DNA of 64,000 nt from a virus (IMGVR_UViG_3300045391_004375:16816-80815), one strand, 5' to 3'; shown: positions 34,973 through 40,932, numbered from the stretch's first letter. The notes: generated by a model not told the origin, from the sequence alone. Numbers and translations are program-made.

Positions 34973-37900
34973 ATGGGGAAGCGCAGCCTGCGGGCCCTGC
35001 ACTGGGTGGAGGCCAAGCACCCCCGCGACGACCGGGGCCGCTTCTCCCACAAGGGTGGCCAGAAGTGGGCCCGGAAGGTCGCCGACGAGCTGGGCGCCCG
35101 GTTCGGCGATATCCACATGGGCGCGGCCCCCGGCCGTGAGCCGCAGGGCAAGCTGCAGTCGTCCAAGGCCGGCGGGTTCCTGCTGAACACGAAGGCGGCA
35201 TCGGCGGCCGGCCGGGACGCCGGGATGCGCGCGGAAGGCCACCGGCTGGTCACCGAACTGGGCGGGATCCGCAAGGAGCGGGGCACCGGCGGCGGCAGCC
35301 CCGAGGGAATGCGCGAAGCCCTGAACAACAGCTCGGGCAGCTCCCTGAAGGCGACGGTCGCCCAGCTGCGCACCCACGTGCAGCAAGAAGGCGGCTGGCT
35401 GAAGGAGGAGCGGGCGGCGTCCGCCGGCACGATCTCGGTGGGCGACCTGAAGAAGGGCGACCACGCGAAGCTGGTCGGCCAGGACGCCTACGGCAAGCAG
35501 ATCTCCCTGAACGGCTACGTGCAGGGCGTCGGTGACGTCAACGTCCGCAAGGGCCGCAACCGCACCCCGATGAAGGCTGTTCAGGTGGCCGAGACGCCGT
35601 CGGGGGGCGGCGGCTGGCGGGGCACGGTGTACGTCAAGCCGGACCACATGGCCGAGAAGACCACGCCGAAAGCCGACGTGGCGCGCCTGGAGGGCCGCCG
35701 GCCGGGCGGAACGGTCCAGGTGGTCAACCCGGACGGCAAGGGCGGCTTCAAGGTCGAGGGGCGGATCACTCGGGAAGAGGCCGCCCGGCAGATGGGACTT
35801 GACAAGCCGGTTGGCGGCCGGAAGCCTGGAGGGGTGACCACCACCACGCCGAAGGCTCGCGAGCGGCGCGCCGAAGAACTGCGCATCAGCAATGACCCGA
35901 AGGACAACGGCGCCAAGATCAAGGCCATTCAGGACGGCACGCTGGCCAGCGCCAGCCTGTACCGCAAGGTGGCCGCCGGCCCGAGCGGGCAGCGCTCCAA
36001 CGTCGCCATGGGCCACATCCGGCACACCCCCGACAACCCGTCGGGTGAGTTCCAGATCAGCGACAGCGATGGGCGGCTGGTCGGCTGGGCGTCGCACACG
36101 GTCCGCAATGGCGAGCCGGTATTCTCCGTGCACTCCGAGAACTACGACGGGGAGCACCGCCTGGAAGGCTGGGCTGGGGAGCTGTCCACGGCCGCCGACG
36201 TGCTCATCAACGGTGAACACGCGGCCCGGGGCCGGCACGATTCCGAGCGCATCTCGAAGGGTTCCTTCGAGTCGTACGCCGGCAAGAACATGTCGGTTGA
36301 CCAGCTGGAGCGTCACGGCAACCGGCAGGAACTAGCCAAGGTCAACAAGGAGCTGGAGAACCCGGACCTTGCTCCCACCATCCGCGCCAGCCTGGAGCGG
36401 AAGCGGACCCAGCTGGAGGCCGACTTCGCCGAGATGATCGGTGCGTCGAAGACCCCCACGCCCAAGGCCCCGGAAGCGCCCCAGGATCGGCGCATGGCCG
36501 AAGTTACCCGCATCGAGAACGCGCGAGCCAACTTCGGCAAGGGCGAGGCCTCCAAGGCCACCGAGGTGGGCCGCAAGCCGGGCGGCGGTTACCAGTACAG
36601 CGACTACTCCAAGGCCCACCACGACATGGGCAACCTGACCGTCGCCGAGGCTGGATTGCCCGACAAGGGCGCGGTGCACTCCCAGTACCAGGGGATGCTG
36701 CGCAGCATCAACGAACTGAAGCGGCAGGGCCCGGCCCGGGTCGGCTCGAAAGACCAGTACTACCGGCCGATGACCCGCAAGCTCGAAGAGGCCGCCCAGT
36801 ACGTGCACGAACACGAAGGCAACCCCGACACGGTGGCCAAGCTGCGGGCCCTCGCCGACATCCACCGCCCCCACACCGACACCGCCCCCAAGCTGGTCAG
36901 CGGCGCCGACATCCGCTCGCAGCGGGCCGCCATGGCCTCCAGCCTCGGCGTCGACATGAACGACCCCAACCGGTGGACCCGCAGCCTCGGCGACGTCCGG
37001 CAGGAAGTCATCAGCAAGGCGATTCGGGACATTCCGCAGTACTACACGCACAAAGACCTGATGGACGCCCAGCAGCGGCTCAAAGACACCTCGATCCACG
37101 ACACGGAGGCGATGGACGCCGCCGCGCTGAACCTGCACCGCATCGGCGACGAGATCCGGGCTAAGCAGGACGACCTGAAGGCCGTCGGCACCCGGTTCCG
37201 GACCGCCCTGGAGGCGGCCGGCGGCCTGGCCGACCAGGAGGCCGCCGTCAAGGCCGACCTGCGCCGGATCAAGAAGGAGAACGGCATCCCCGGCGATGCG
37301 GCCATCAAGAAGTTGCCGAACGGTGAGCGGCAGGCCGCCGAGGCCGCCCTGTTCGACATCCAGAAGGCCACCCGGGCGCGGGTGGCCCGGGAGAACAACC
37401 TCAAGCAGGCCAAGATCGGCCGGGAAGTGCTGGCCAAGGGCGGCATGCACCCGGACAACGCCGCCGAGCTGGAAAAGCGGATCAAGAACGTTGAGGGGGG
37501 CGCGACCGCCGAGCAGGTGGCCCGGGACGAGCGCGAACGGGACCTGGCCCTGGCCGTGTGGCGACACGCCAAAGACAACTCCGGCACGACCGGCGAATAC
37601 CCGGCTGACCACCTGAAAGGTCTCGACGCCGAGGAGCAGATGGCGGTCACCGTGATGGCCCGCAACGTCGGCCTGAACGCCGCCGACGAGCTGGCCCAGG
37701 ATCTGCGCGGCCAGAAGGGCCTCAAGGCGCCGAAGGCGAACACCGACTACACCGGGTTCAGCGAGTCGCAGACCCGGGCCCTGCGCTCGATCGAGAATGA
37801 CCCGCTCCGGCACGCCCAGGTGCGGGAAAACTTCGGCCAGGCCAACGCCGCGCGGGCCGCCGACGAGGCGAAGCGGGCCAAGGAGCTGGCCACGGTGTCG

Positions 37901-39018: not shown

Positions 39019-40932
39019 ATGCCAGCCACCATGCCAGCGGCCCGCCTGTCGAAGCTCGACACCCCCGCGCTGATCGAGCAGTACGACCAGGCGATCTCCA
39101 GCCACAAGGGCCGGTACACCGACACCGCGCCCCGGCAGCAGCGCATCAACAAGATCGTCGACCTGTTGACGGAGCGGGCCGACGCCGACGACCCGGACGC
39201 CCTGGCCTGGTTCGAGAAGGAGCAGAAGACCCCCAGCGGGTCAACCGCCCGCAAGGCCGCTCCCGGAGAGCCCACGCTGGGCGTCACCACCTCGGCCCGG
39301 GGCCGCACCACCACGGTGACCCTGCCCGACGGCACCACCGAGCAGCGCACCAGCAAGACCCGCGAATACACGCACGCCGTGGTGGTCACCGCCGACAACC
39401 ACAACGACGCCACCGACCTCCAGGTGGACAACGCCCGCCGGCAGAAGTTCGTCGATGCCCTCCAGCAGTGGATCAACGAAGGTTCGGACACCTCCAAGCT
39501 GAAGGGGTACCCGACCGGTTCCCTCTCCCACGCGGAGCGGCAGGCCGGCGTCAAGCCGACCGAGTACTACCTGCCCGGCTTCGAGCCCACCCGGGTGCAG
39601 GGGCGGACCGGCGACACCTGGGAGAACACGGAGTTCAGCCTCCCGAACTTCAAGGACACCCGCAAGCTGAGCTGGGCGGACGGCCGGACCGAATGGGAGG
39701 AGTACGGCCCCGAGCACGTACTGAAGCGCAACCAGGAAACCATCGACAAGCAGGCCAAGAAGGCTGACCAGCTCCTTGCCGGCCCCCGCTACAGCTACGG
39801 CGTGTGGCGCTGGTCCAGTTCTCCAACGGCCGCCCAGGCCGCCGCAAGCCAGTTCGGCAACTACCGCAACCGCTCCACCCAGGTGATCGGGGTCGGGGGG
39901 GTCGCCGAGGCGAAGAAGGCGACCAAGCCGGTGCTGAGCGCCGAGGAGAAGGCCGCCCAGGCCGAGGTGCGCAAGCTCGCCGCCAAGGCTGCCGAAAAGG
40001 CCCGCAACGAGGCCAGTAACGCCGAATTCGTTCAGCGCAAGCTCAAGAGTGTGGCCGAGCGGGTCACCAGTGGCGTGGACACCCCCGACACTGCGCTGAG
40101 CACCGTCAATGACCGTGGTCTGAGCGTGCTCGCCAAAGAGCTGGGCGTGAAGACCCCGCGCGGCTACCGGACGAACCGGGCGATCAAGGACGCTTACGAG
40201 CGGTCGATCGTCGAGGCGATCATGGCCCGCGCCAACGCGCGCAAGAGCGCCGCCCGGCTCGCCGACGCCGAAGCCGCCGCCCAGAAGGCCGCCGACCGCC
40301 TTGAAGGTGCAGCAGCCCTCAACTCGGCCCCCGCCAAGGTCCGCGACGGCAAACTGTCCCTCCCCGGCTGGGGCGACGGCGAGCGGGCCGACGCCGCCGA
40401 TGCCCTGGAGCACTACCGGGACGTGGGCTTCGCCGACCTCAACCGGGACCTGCGGGCCGGCGTACCCGGCTCCGACAAGGGTCGGCAGACCACCGCCACC
40501 GTCGACAAGGTGATGGCCGCCTCTCCGCTGCCCCAACCGGTCACCGTCCACCGGGGCGTCGAAGACGCCGGCCACTTCAAGGTCGGCCAGGTCATCACCG
40601 ACCCCACCTACAGCTCCACCAGCGTCGACTTCGCCGTAGCGAAAGGCTTCGCCGGCAAGGGCGGGGCGGTCCTGCGCATGCAGGTCCCCGCCGGGGTCGG
40701 CGCGGTCAACCTGTCCGACGTGCCCGGCGCCCGCCCGGACGAACGGGAAGGGGAACTGCTCCTGCAGCGCGGCCTGCGCTACCGCGTGGTCAGCGAATCG
40801 ACCGTCAACGGGGTGCGGGTGTTCGACGTCGTGATCGAACCCGGCCCCATCACGCCGGTCCGGGCGGGCACCGGGCGTCGCCCCGGCGGCAGCCGACCGG
40901 CCGGCCCGCCGAAGTTCCGCCCCCGTGGATGA
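39019..40932 (+). CDS. VIP2/Alt-type ADP-ribosyltransferase (C-terminal domain)
   Basis: Y..LNRDLR, VHRG, YSSTS and EGELLL (R-S-E triad with ExE). Confidence 0.88.
   Translation: MPATMPAARLSKLDTPALIEQYDQAISSHKGRYTDTAPRQQRINKIVDLLTERADADDPDALAWFEKEQKTPSGSTARKAAPGEPTLGVTTSARGRTTTVTLPDGTTEQRTSKTREYTHAVVVTADNHNDATDLQVDNARRQKFVDALQQWINEGSDTSKLKGYPTGSLSHAERQAGVKPTEYYLPGFEPTRVQGRTGDTWENTEFSLPNFKDTRKLSWADGRTEWEEYGPEHVLKRNQETIDKQAKKADQLLAGPRYSYGVWRWSSSPTAAQAAASQFGNYRNRSTQVIGVGGVAEAKKATKPVLSAEEKAAQAEVRKLAAKAAEKARNEASNAEFVQRKLKSVAERVTSGVDTPDTALSTVNDRGLSVLAKELGVKTPRGYRTNRAIKDAYERSIVEAIMARANARKSAARLADAEAAAQKAADRLEGAAALNSAPAKVRDGKLSLPGWGDGERADAADALEHYRDVGFADLNRDLRAGVPGSDKGRQTTATVDKVMAASPLPQPVTVHRGVEDAGHFKVGQVITDPTYSSTSVDFAVAKGFAGKGGAVLRMQVPAGVGAVNLSDVPGARPDEREGELLLQRGLRYRVVSESTVNGVRVFDVVIEPGPITPVRAGTGRRPGGSRPAGPPKFRPRG

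Follow-up and report, generated by a model that had tools for sequence, protein, structure and literature searches.

A probable programmed -1 frameshift cassette linking a predicted ADP-ribosyltransferase to a giant portal-adjacent protein in high-GC soil phages

The window analysed here is a stretch of 64,000 nucleotides (nt) that comprises bases 16816-80815 of an 80,815-bp virus record in IMG/VR (IMGVR_UViG_3300045391_004375), a phage with direct terminal repeats and a GC content of around 70% that is represented in soil metagenomes only. Between the portal gene and a MuF-like gene lie two large open reading frames (ORFs; see Table 1), of which ORF1 specifies a modular giant protein and ORF2 a protein that ends in a predicted ADP-ribosyltransferase (ART) domain. 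A sequence-only reading had proposed that a -1 frameshift at the end of ORF1 fuses the two. A conserved cassette, compensatory changes within an RNA stem, a variant of the slippery heptamer and relatives with a single ORF all support this proposal, and we consider it probable that the ORF1 end is a programmed -1 ribosomal frameshift (PRF) cassette by which the ORF2 ART is joined to the giant protein.

The 3' end of ORF1 reads CCG GGG GGA AAA GCG TAG (CCGGGGGGAAAAGCGTAG), with a run of six G residues at 38848-38853 and one of four A residues at 38854-38857. It contains, as had been noticed before, a G_GGA_AAA heptamer in the register of ORF1; a second heptamer, G_GGG_GGA at 38848, overlaps with it. 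With respect to ORF1, ORF2 is shifted to the -1 frame, which is open from the slip site to 40932, in agreement with the earlier reading, and in fact already from 38740. ATG, GTG and TTG are all absent from it ahead of 39019, and the first start is found 56 codons downstream of the site. Over 38864-38975, the GC content at third codon positions (GC3) reaches 0.95 in the -1 frame, compared with 0.51 and 0.58 in the other two, and the GC3 of the ORF1 frame collapses where the bias of the -1 frame begins. The claim of a coding bias over the ~160 nt before the ATG of ORF2 holds for ~112 nt; it does not hold for the last 43 nt (38976-39018), which include a palindrome and two GGAGG boxes and where the value falls to 0.60. 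A shift at the heptamer would yield a protein of 1295 + 54 + 637 = 1986 amino acids (aa), which is the size anticipated earlier, and SVGPTESGPTEEPK would be the tryptic peptide unique to the trans frame.

Among 7,090 structural-gene codons, the G_GGA_AAA at the ORF1 end is the sole in-register XXXYYYZ sequence with A or T as Y. Both of its codons are rare in this phage (GGA 30/651 of Gly, AAA 33/254 of Lys), and the expected number of in-register G_GGA_AAA is 0.07 per 6,726 codons. Because the heptamer is unique among the structural codons and built from rare ones, a chance origin is unlikely. The tail-chaperone ORF of the same phage (52927-53232) ends in G_GGA_AAC TGA, which bears out the GGGAAAC site of the earlier reading; the heptamer (53223-53229) lies directly before the stop, and its -1 frame runs to 53582, just ahead of the tape-measure gene. 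The junction between ORF1 and ORF2 is located in the head module, 14 kb upstream of this pair and not directly before the tape-measure gene.

Given that homopolymer runs are error-prone and that the source contig is metagenomic, the G6A4 run might be an artefact of sequencing or assembly, or vary in phase at the DNA level, with one 1986-aa ORF in the true or variant genome. This is highly improbable. A 97%-identical phage from a different sample of the Joint Genome Institute, assembled independently (L006; related loci are given as L numbers), carries the identical sequence, and Logan unitigs of two further soil runs (X2 over 38765-38934 and X3 over 38695-38888) cross the run without a difference. 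Independent assemblies and unitigs thus all show G6A4 and not G7, and the break is therefore not an assembly error. The comparison of runs made use of Logan unitigs/contigs at around 3x depth, at which minor length variants are below resolution, and the contigs X4 and X5 do not span the site. In addition, diverged relatives break the frame alike with merely G3A4. In the linker of L006, 90 nt (30 codons) are deleted in frame, and the -1 frame is still joined to the ATG of ORF2.

The same cassette, composed of G_GGA_AAA, GCG, a stop codon (TAG, TGA or TAA) and a GC stem-loop that starts 5-6 nt past the heptamer, terminates giant genes in more than ten diverged high-GC phage contigs, the C-termini being otherwise unrelated, and at every cassette in those contigs the next gene is in the -1 frame. 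Six of the loci were obtained by protein homology alone (the window, L007, L009, L015, L170 and L171). Within this set the next gene was in the -1 frame in 6/6, with that frame open from the slip site. The protein just before the cassette differs, reading ..RRPGGKA in the window, ..RERQGKA in L007, ..EGYSGKA in L009, ..RSAEGKA in L015, ..KIPGKA in L170 and ..LERQGKA in L171. Pattern scans contributed around eight further loci, five from IMG/VR (L016-L020) and three from metagenomes (L031, L051, L090). The identical heptamer was found in L006, L007, L009 (twice), L015-L020, L170 and L171, and a ...GKA terminus in 17 of the 160 relatives fetched. One relative (P0038) that ends in ...GKA also begins with VSPQGG, the start of the trans-frame peptide, and so extends from one cassette to another. 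A pattern scan of bacterial genome contigs gave 48 matches, which is about the chance estimate, and none of these passed the stop-plus-hairpin filter; no host is therefore named.

Two cassettes in series are present in L009 and L016. The second one of L016, found with a covariance model, has C_CCA_AAA as the heptamer (GGC CCA AAA GCG TAG GCCCGCAGGGCGGGC), and the X_XXY_YYZ rule is therefore kept with a different X. The path in L016 runs from frame 2 via frame 1 to frame 0, with a 441-aa ORF that carries the N-terminal tag described below, a -1 shift, 1292 codons, another -1 shift and 140 codons. In most loci the -1 extension has the highest GC3 of the three frames (0.88-0.97). The extensions lack a start codon for 26-105 codons, the first start within the 140-codon extension of L016 being at codon 105. 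The trans-frame peptides open with GKSV(S/G)PQGG, continue with variable Ala/Pro/Thr-rich linkers and then enter the next domain; the extension of L018 ends in a PF03496 ART (E 1e-20) and that of L019 includes the middle domain of ORF2. Diverged relatives thus retain the heptamer together with an open -1 frame, and this refuting condition of the earlier reading, like the one on G7, came out in favour of the frameshift.

No family could be assigned to ORF1 on basis of Pfam, PHROG or PDB, nor was a usable look-alike found in the ESM Atlas, and the earlier label of 'giant head protein' is therefore not established. Near-identity and protein searches of a collection of 50,697 phage records gave no relative of ORF1, and only a 60-residue match between the N-terminus of ORF2 and small mycobacteriophage proteins; a search for related loci in IMG/VR with the extended ORF2 found nothing. 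The homology of ORF1 is mosaic, with modules in common with proteins 1400-2100 aa long. When the linker plus ORF2 served as query in a full HMMER search, the middle domain of ORF2 (~aa 70-405) proved to be usually located at the C-terminal end of such giant proteins, and sixteen proteins match both ORF1 and ORF2. In L014 a single ORF of 1676 aa (P0018) is colinear with the pair, comprising the N-terminus of ORF1, two ORF1 modules and ORF2 residues, and it is situated between the portal gene and a ~315-aa MuF-like gene, as ORF1 and ORF2 are here. Some relatives thus encode ORF1-like and ORF2-like modules as one ORF and, judged by these alignments, ORF1 and ORF2 are halves of one unit in relatives.

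The existence of fused relatives also fits the main rival explanation, in which there is no recoding and a one-base indel in the G/A run has split an ancestral giant gene: ORF1 would just terminate, ORF2 would be expressed only from its own promoter and ATG, and the linker would be a decaying remnant. Homopolymer runs are indel hot spots, ORF2 possesses its own Shine-Dalgarno (SD) sequence, ATG and promoter, and GC3 drops just ahead of that ATG. Nevertheless, we consider a split gene unlikely. A random indel fails to explain the recurrence of the same heptamer-GCG-stop-hairpin on unrelated C-termini in more than ten diverged phages, and in most relatives the G run is 3 long (e.g. CAGGGAAAA) and hence not an indel hot spot. 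Moreover, GGA and AAA are rare yet invariant while the stop codon and stem positions covary, a C_CCA_AAA variant exists, and some extensions are without a start codon for 80-105 codons.

The GC stem-loop that follows the heptamer is likely the frameshift stimulator, as judged from its position and pairing. In the stem, 86.5% of the cells pair, whereas sliding the 3' partner leaves 23-50% paired. For the outer pair, 18 rows have G-C and L170 has C-G; for the inner pair, 11 rows have C-G, 5 have G-C and one has G-U. The search pattern fixed five stem pairs, the inner pair not being among them, and the change of the outer pair comes from L170, a locus found by homology and thus free of pattern bias. 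In addition, the Gly and Lys codons are invariably the rare GGA and AAA while the stop varies between TAG, TGA and TAA at the same position, and we take this as a sign that conservation acts on the nucleotide signal and not on the peptide. A search of 38700-39100 against Rfam gave no matching family. The palindrome at 38983 was considered as a stimulator as well and rejected, as it lies 126 nt downstream and is part of a promoter/operator motif that is repeated elsewhere in the genome.

A conserved hairpin could have other roles. Junction motifs of polymorphic toxins are conserved points of module exchange, and the mosaic flanks around the conserved 30-nt core resemble those of a recombination junction; likewise, a GC hairpin right after a stop recalls the actinobacterial terminators that lack a U-tract. 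The conserved string might accordingly be mainly a U-less terminator, an RNA-processing hairpin or a recombination site for effector modules, with the heptamer incidental. We regard this as quite unlikely, since neither termination nor recombination requires an in-register X_XXY_YYZ of rare codons, a stop placed precisely one codon behind it, or a following gene that invariably lies in the -1 frame and is reached through an open, coding-biased stretch, and since the change of GGG to CCC preserves slipperiness. A role in recombination could coexist with frameshifting, not replace it. Transcriptional slippage as the main route was rejected: the relatives have only G3A4, which is to be read against the run lengths that are generally known to be required.

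Several observations weigh against a programmed frameshift or against the use proposed for it. Most copies of the cassette were found with a pattern in which five pairs were fixed, and the unbiased covariation comes from few sequences. The hairpin of the window has only 6-7 bp and an 8-nt loop, and the local fold (z = -1.4) is not unusual for the base composition, so the hairpin is not singled out thermodynamically. In L009b, L019, L020 and L090 the extension frame is not the one preferred by GC3 within the first 40 codons, and start codons are found near the beginning of many downstream domains in relatives. With its good SD sequence, ATG and promoter-like element, ORF2 would not need a fusion for the expression of the ART. 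The packaging role of tag and fusion is deduced from gene position, ORF1 being without a recognisable family, and the 1986-aa trans-frame protein is a prediction from sequence only.

The programmed frameshift that we favour would proceed as follows, slippage, its efficiency and packaging being inferred from sequence features and conservation that are directly seen. While tRNA-Gly and tRNA-Lys occupy GGA and AAA (codons 1294-1295), the ribosome would meet the stem-loop 5-6 nt downstream, and a fraction of the ribosomes would move back by one base to GGG-AAA. Those that keep their frame would add Ala and stop at TAG to give the 1296-aa protein, while those that slip would translate the 54-codon linker and then all of ORF2, to give a protein of ~1986 aa with a VIP2/ExoT-type ART at its C-terminus. 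The cassette would constitute a portable junction in high-GC soil phages that joins modules of portal-adjacent giant genes, sometimes twice in series, other relatives joining the same modules by direct fusion. The fusion would provide the ART with the N-terminal tag of ORF1, such that a set fraction of it may be packaged and delivered with the DNA.

Table 1. Positions of the features discussed, in the window unless preceded by a locus number
Feature	Position	Strand	Remark
Large terminase (TerL)	29784-31733		
SPP1-type portal gene	32332-34365		
202-aa ORF	34362-34970	+	directly after portal gene; W.E..HPRD..GRF tag at nt 34383
ORF1	34973-38863	+	1296-aa 0-frame product; modular giant protein
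Slippery heptamer G_GGA_AAA	38851-38857	+	in ORF1 register, two codons before stop
Trans-frame linker	38857-39018	+	54 codons, SVGPTESGPTEEPK..., read only after -1 shift, without own start codon
0-frame stop TAG	38861-38863	+	one codon past heptamer
GC stem-loop	38863-38882	+	(G)GCCCG-ACGGAGAG-CGGGC(C), 5-6 nt past heptamer
Palindrome CTTGACAACTCAGTTGTCAAG	38983-39003	+	21 nt; putative promoter/operator
ORF2	39019-40932	+	637 aa
Predicted ART domain, PF03496	40393-40803	+	VIP2/ExoT-like; Pfam profile
MuF-like minor head protein gene	40925-41881	+	318 aa, closes portal-proximal cluster; weak PHROG matches
Major capsid protein	43818-44900		
Tail assembly chaperone pair	52927-53582	+	comparison site only
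Tape-measure gene	53596-56178		
Cassette, window			giant gene end ..CCGGGGGGAAAAGCGTAG; after stop GCCCGACGGAGAGCGGGCC
Cassette, L007			giant gene end ..CAGGGAAAAGCGTGA; after stop GCCCGCAGGGCGGGC
Cassette, L009			giant gene end ..TCGGGAAAAGCGTAA; after stop GCCCGCAGGGCGGGC
Cassette, L015			giant gene end ..GAGGGAAAAGCGTAA; after stop GCCCGCAGGGCGGGC
Cassette, L171			giant gene end ..CAGGGAAAAGCGTGA; after stop GCCCGCAGGGCGGGC
Cassette, L170			giant gene end ..CCGGGAAAAGCCTGA; after stop CCCCGCAGGGCGGGG
N-terminal tag	34383, 35018; L007:3186, 6037, 13679		also in L009, L015, L016, L170, L171
In-frame promoter-like palindrome, -10 and ATG	L014:8575-8625; L015:6045-6095 and 7810-7885		translated ..LDTSGV....GGM..
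Cassette at XRE/HTH_3 ORFs	L037:5903-6468; L060:1920-2647; L097:1582-2102; L108:2156-2940		

ORF2 is composed of a small N-terminal domain (phrog_14103-like, aa 12-66), the middle domain and the C-terminal ART, which was recognised at aa 459-595 with 38.9 bits (cut-off 23.4). The R, STS and ExE motifs are present by alignment to ExoT (6gnn) and VIP2; in the ExoT alignment hRG corresponds to fRG and YSSTS to YLSTS, and DEREGE of the query is opposite DE--QE of ExoT, with a gap. By these signatures the C-terminus of ORF2 belongs to the ART exoenzyme family, and enzyme activity is predicted.

A putative promoter of ORF2 consists of a -35 sequence TTGACA (38984-38989), a 17-nt spacer and a -10-like GAGGAT (39007-39012), the latter replaced by GAGACT in L006. 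GGAGG boxes are found at 39006-39010 and 39013-39017, and a GGAGG 8 nt upstream of the ATG could serve ribosomes on longer mRNAs. The fact that GAGGAT ends 6 nt ahead of the ATG at 39019 suggests a leaderless or near-leaderless transcript. The palindrome occurs three times in the genome (38983-39003 and 3980-4000 of the window, and G000:C1:2464-2484), with the consensus CTTGACAACT[C/G]AGTTGTCA[A/G/C]G, which includes the -35 TTGACA. At each of the other two, a spacer of 17-18 nt separates TTGACA from a TACGCT or TACTGT box (TANNNT), behind which come a conserved 5' untranslated leader (CCACCNCCCAGGAGGCCCC), AGGAGG and ATG; to judge from this layout they are sigma-70-type promoters with an operator-like dyad. 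The genes behind them encode proteins of 191 and 192 aa without known function, and a shared promoter/operator looks as if it would place the ART gene in the regulon of these proteins.

Because ORF2 has its own promoter/operator palindrome, SD sequence and ATG, free ART is probably made separately as well. Within their uninterrupted giant ORFs, L014 and L015 contain homologous palindrome-promoter cassettes that are read in frame, which suggests nested internal starts that release C-terminal modules, and they also come after the frameshift cassette in L016, L019 and L170. Downstream modules thus appear to be made in two ways, free from internal promoters and as C-terminal parts of giant proteins. 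A longer ORF2 from a non-canonical start (ATC/ATT after GGAGGAG, ~38887-38905) was rejected, as L006 deletes this stretch in frame.

The N-termini of ORF1 (HPRDDRGRF, from nt 35018) and of the 202-aa ORF share the tag W.E..HPRD..GRF..(K/R)GG. This tag also heads several genes of the portal-to-MuF-like cluster in relatives that are otherwise unrelated, including the gene for an ATLF-like metalloprotease in L007, and it is absent from ORF2 and from the 1292-codon second segment of L016. It may be a signal for loading into the virion (prohead or portal), and the fusion would then lend it to a set fraction of the ART, to be packaged and delivered with the DNA. The terms 'head protein', 'packaged cargo' and 'minority product' of the earlier reading are likewise backed only by gene position and the shared tag. 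The gene order TerL, portal, ORF1, ORF2 and MuF-like fits the context of polyvalent proteins and MuF-linked toxins, but the ART is the only effector domain that could be recognised, and the modules of ORF1 match no family. In L007 (3153-5361 and 12453-13493) the portal-to-MuF cluster adds an anthrax-lethal-factor-like (PF07737) protease, a small Arr-like ART and a separate PF03496 ART; the latter is in the same frame as the 686-aa frameshift extension, three bases past the stop of the extension.

As to the other genes of the cluster, the 202-aa ORF is without a Pfam or PHROG match, and the MuF-like gene matches phrog_115 at 3.5e-5 and phrog_24918 at 9.8e-5, both weak. A ~315-aa gene takes the equivalent position in L006, L009, L014, L170 and L171. 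The MuF-like gene forms an ORF of its own, shifted to the +1 frame with respect to ORF2, and there is no MuF-toxin fusion. The end of ORF2 (..CGT GGA TGA) overlaps its GTG start by 8 nt (40925-40932, GTGGATGA), which is ordinary coupling; a slippery site was not seen there. A GR[RK]PGG motif occurs five times, roughly at aa 250, 285, 535 and 1290 of ORF1 and at aa ~620 of ORF2, with one copy (..AGRRPGGKA*) right at the slip site and another (..TGRRPGGSR..) close to the C-terminal end of ORF2. The PGG codons give rise to the G6 run of this phage, and the motifs may be processing sites of the giant protein. In L014 (1-2780) the terminase has 1257+ aa, with a faint LAGLIDADG match, and the enlargement is probably an intein.

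The same cassette (G_GGA_AAA GCG TAA and a GCCCGG..CCGGGC hairpin) also ends short ORFs for XRE/HTH_3 DNA-binding proteins (80-118 aa, ...AGKA*) in metagenome contigs of 56-61% GC. Past it, the -1 frame continues for 110-170 codons (GKSVSP...), in L060 without a start for 80 codons, and a long isoform of the regulator may be made by frameshifting. A joint reading of all observations is possible, though we would not call it probable. In this reading X_XXA_AAA GCG stop plus GC hairpin would be the standard connector of a virion-delivered polymorphic effector system, in which modules behind an N-terminal tag for packaging would be linked through a single -1 shift or a series of them to give nested tagged products of graded abundance. 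Internal operator-controlled promoters would free the same modules at another time, and the cassette would also serve as a recombination point for module swaps and would have been taken up by XRE-type regulators for the production of two isoforms.

In tailed phages, the annotation of PRF is routinely limited to tail chaperones, and experimentally it is known for few capsid genes. The cassette would represent a second conserved recoding signal, located in the head module, that sets how much effector joins a giant carrier. If confirmed, separate entries for a 'hypothetical protein' and an 'ART' in metagenomic actinophages need re-annotation, and effector cargo can be sought by a sequence criterion, the ...GKA* terminus plus hairpin of giant genes. 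Serial frameshifting would be established as a means to set the stoichiometry of nested products, and a compact frameshift element of ~30 nt for high-GC hosts would become available as a tool. Effector loading into capsids becomes a testable question, with the N-terminal HPRD..GRF tag and the recoded link as the candidates.

Among the closest known counterparts are the tail chaperones. GGGAAAA has been annotated as a -1 slippery site in those of actinobacteriophages, including mycobacteriophage TM4 and Microbacterium phage Bush (PMC4626039, PMC11749239), and the site of the lambda G/GT pair is G_GGA_AAG (Xu, Hendrix and Duda 2004, as cited in PMC7302621). The G/GT system has the same type of heptamer at the end of a short ORF and a -1 extension that leads to a fixed ratio of short and long product, and the tail chaperone pair of this phage has the same layout. 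The junction described here differs in that it lies between the portal and MuF-like genes, that the upstream product has 1296 versus ~100 aa and that the extension (691 aa) bears an enzyme; moreover, the cassette has a conserved hairpin and serial copies and moves between unrelated modules.

Recoding in a gene of the head module that results in a minor, longer structural variant has precedents. Gene 10A/10B of T7 encodes a capsid protein that is extended by -1 PRF. A C-terminal extension by -1 PRF is likewise cited for the major head protein of Lactobacillus phage A2 (ref. 41 of PMC10885494). In these cases a short tail or decoration-like domain is added to the major capsid protein, whereas here whole effector modules (the ART) would be placed on a giant protein that is not a capsid protein, and the downstream part exists as a gene in its own right as well.

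Regarding the effector, MuF-VIP2 fusions are found in Percival and Goodman, two Microbacterium phages (PMC7302621), and prophages carry MuF-linked polymorphic toxins (Jamet et al. 2017, PMC5576092). The PRFect study goes no further than to remark that VIP2 and MuF genes lying side by side could be frameshift pairs, since fusions exist (PMC10885494), and the word 'frameshift' is absent from the survey of polyvalent proteins (Iyer et al. 2017, PMC5512222). As in those systems, the effector would be tied to a virion-associated protein encoded beside the portal and MuF genes, delivery with the DNA being presumed, and the architecture is a modular mosaic, to which relatives add an ATLF-like protease and an Arr-like ART. 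The known link to MuF is a plain gene fusion, whereas here it would be a frameshift cassette, and the carrier is an HPRD..GRF-tagged giant protein of no known family, with the MuF-like gene separate and downstream.

The Alt ART of T4 is packaged in the head and injected, and internal proteins of T4 carry a capsid-targeting sequence. A summary of Alt is given in PMC5512222. The likeness would consist of a head-packaged ART and a short N-terminal signal that directs cargo into the prohead, which here is deduced from the recurrence of the tag at N-termini; there is no sequence relationship, and loading would, in contrast to T4, depend on recoding. In our searches of the openly accessible literature, neither this cassette nor serial frameshifting in giant effector genes was described. 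The mechanism as such is already known, and it is the portable signal and its biological use that would be new.

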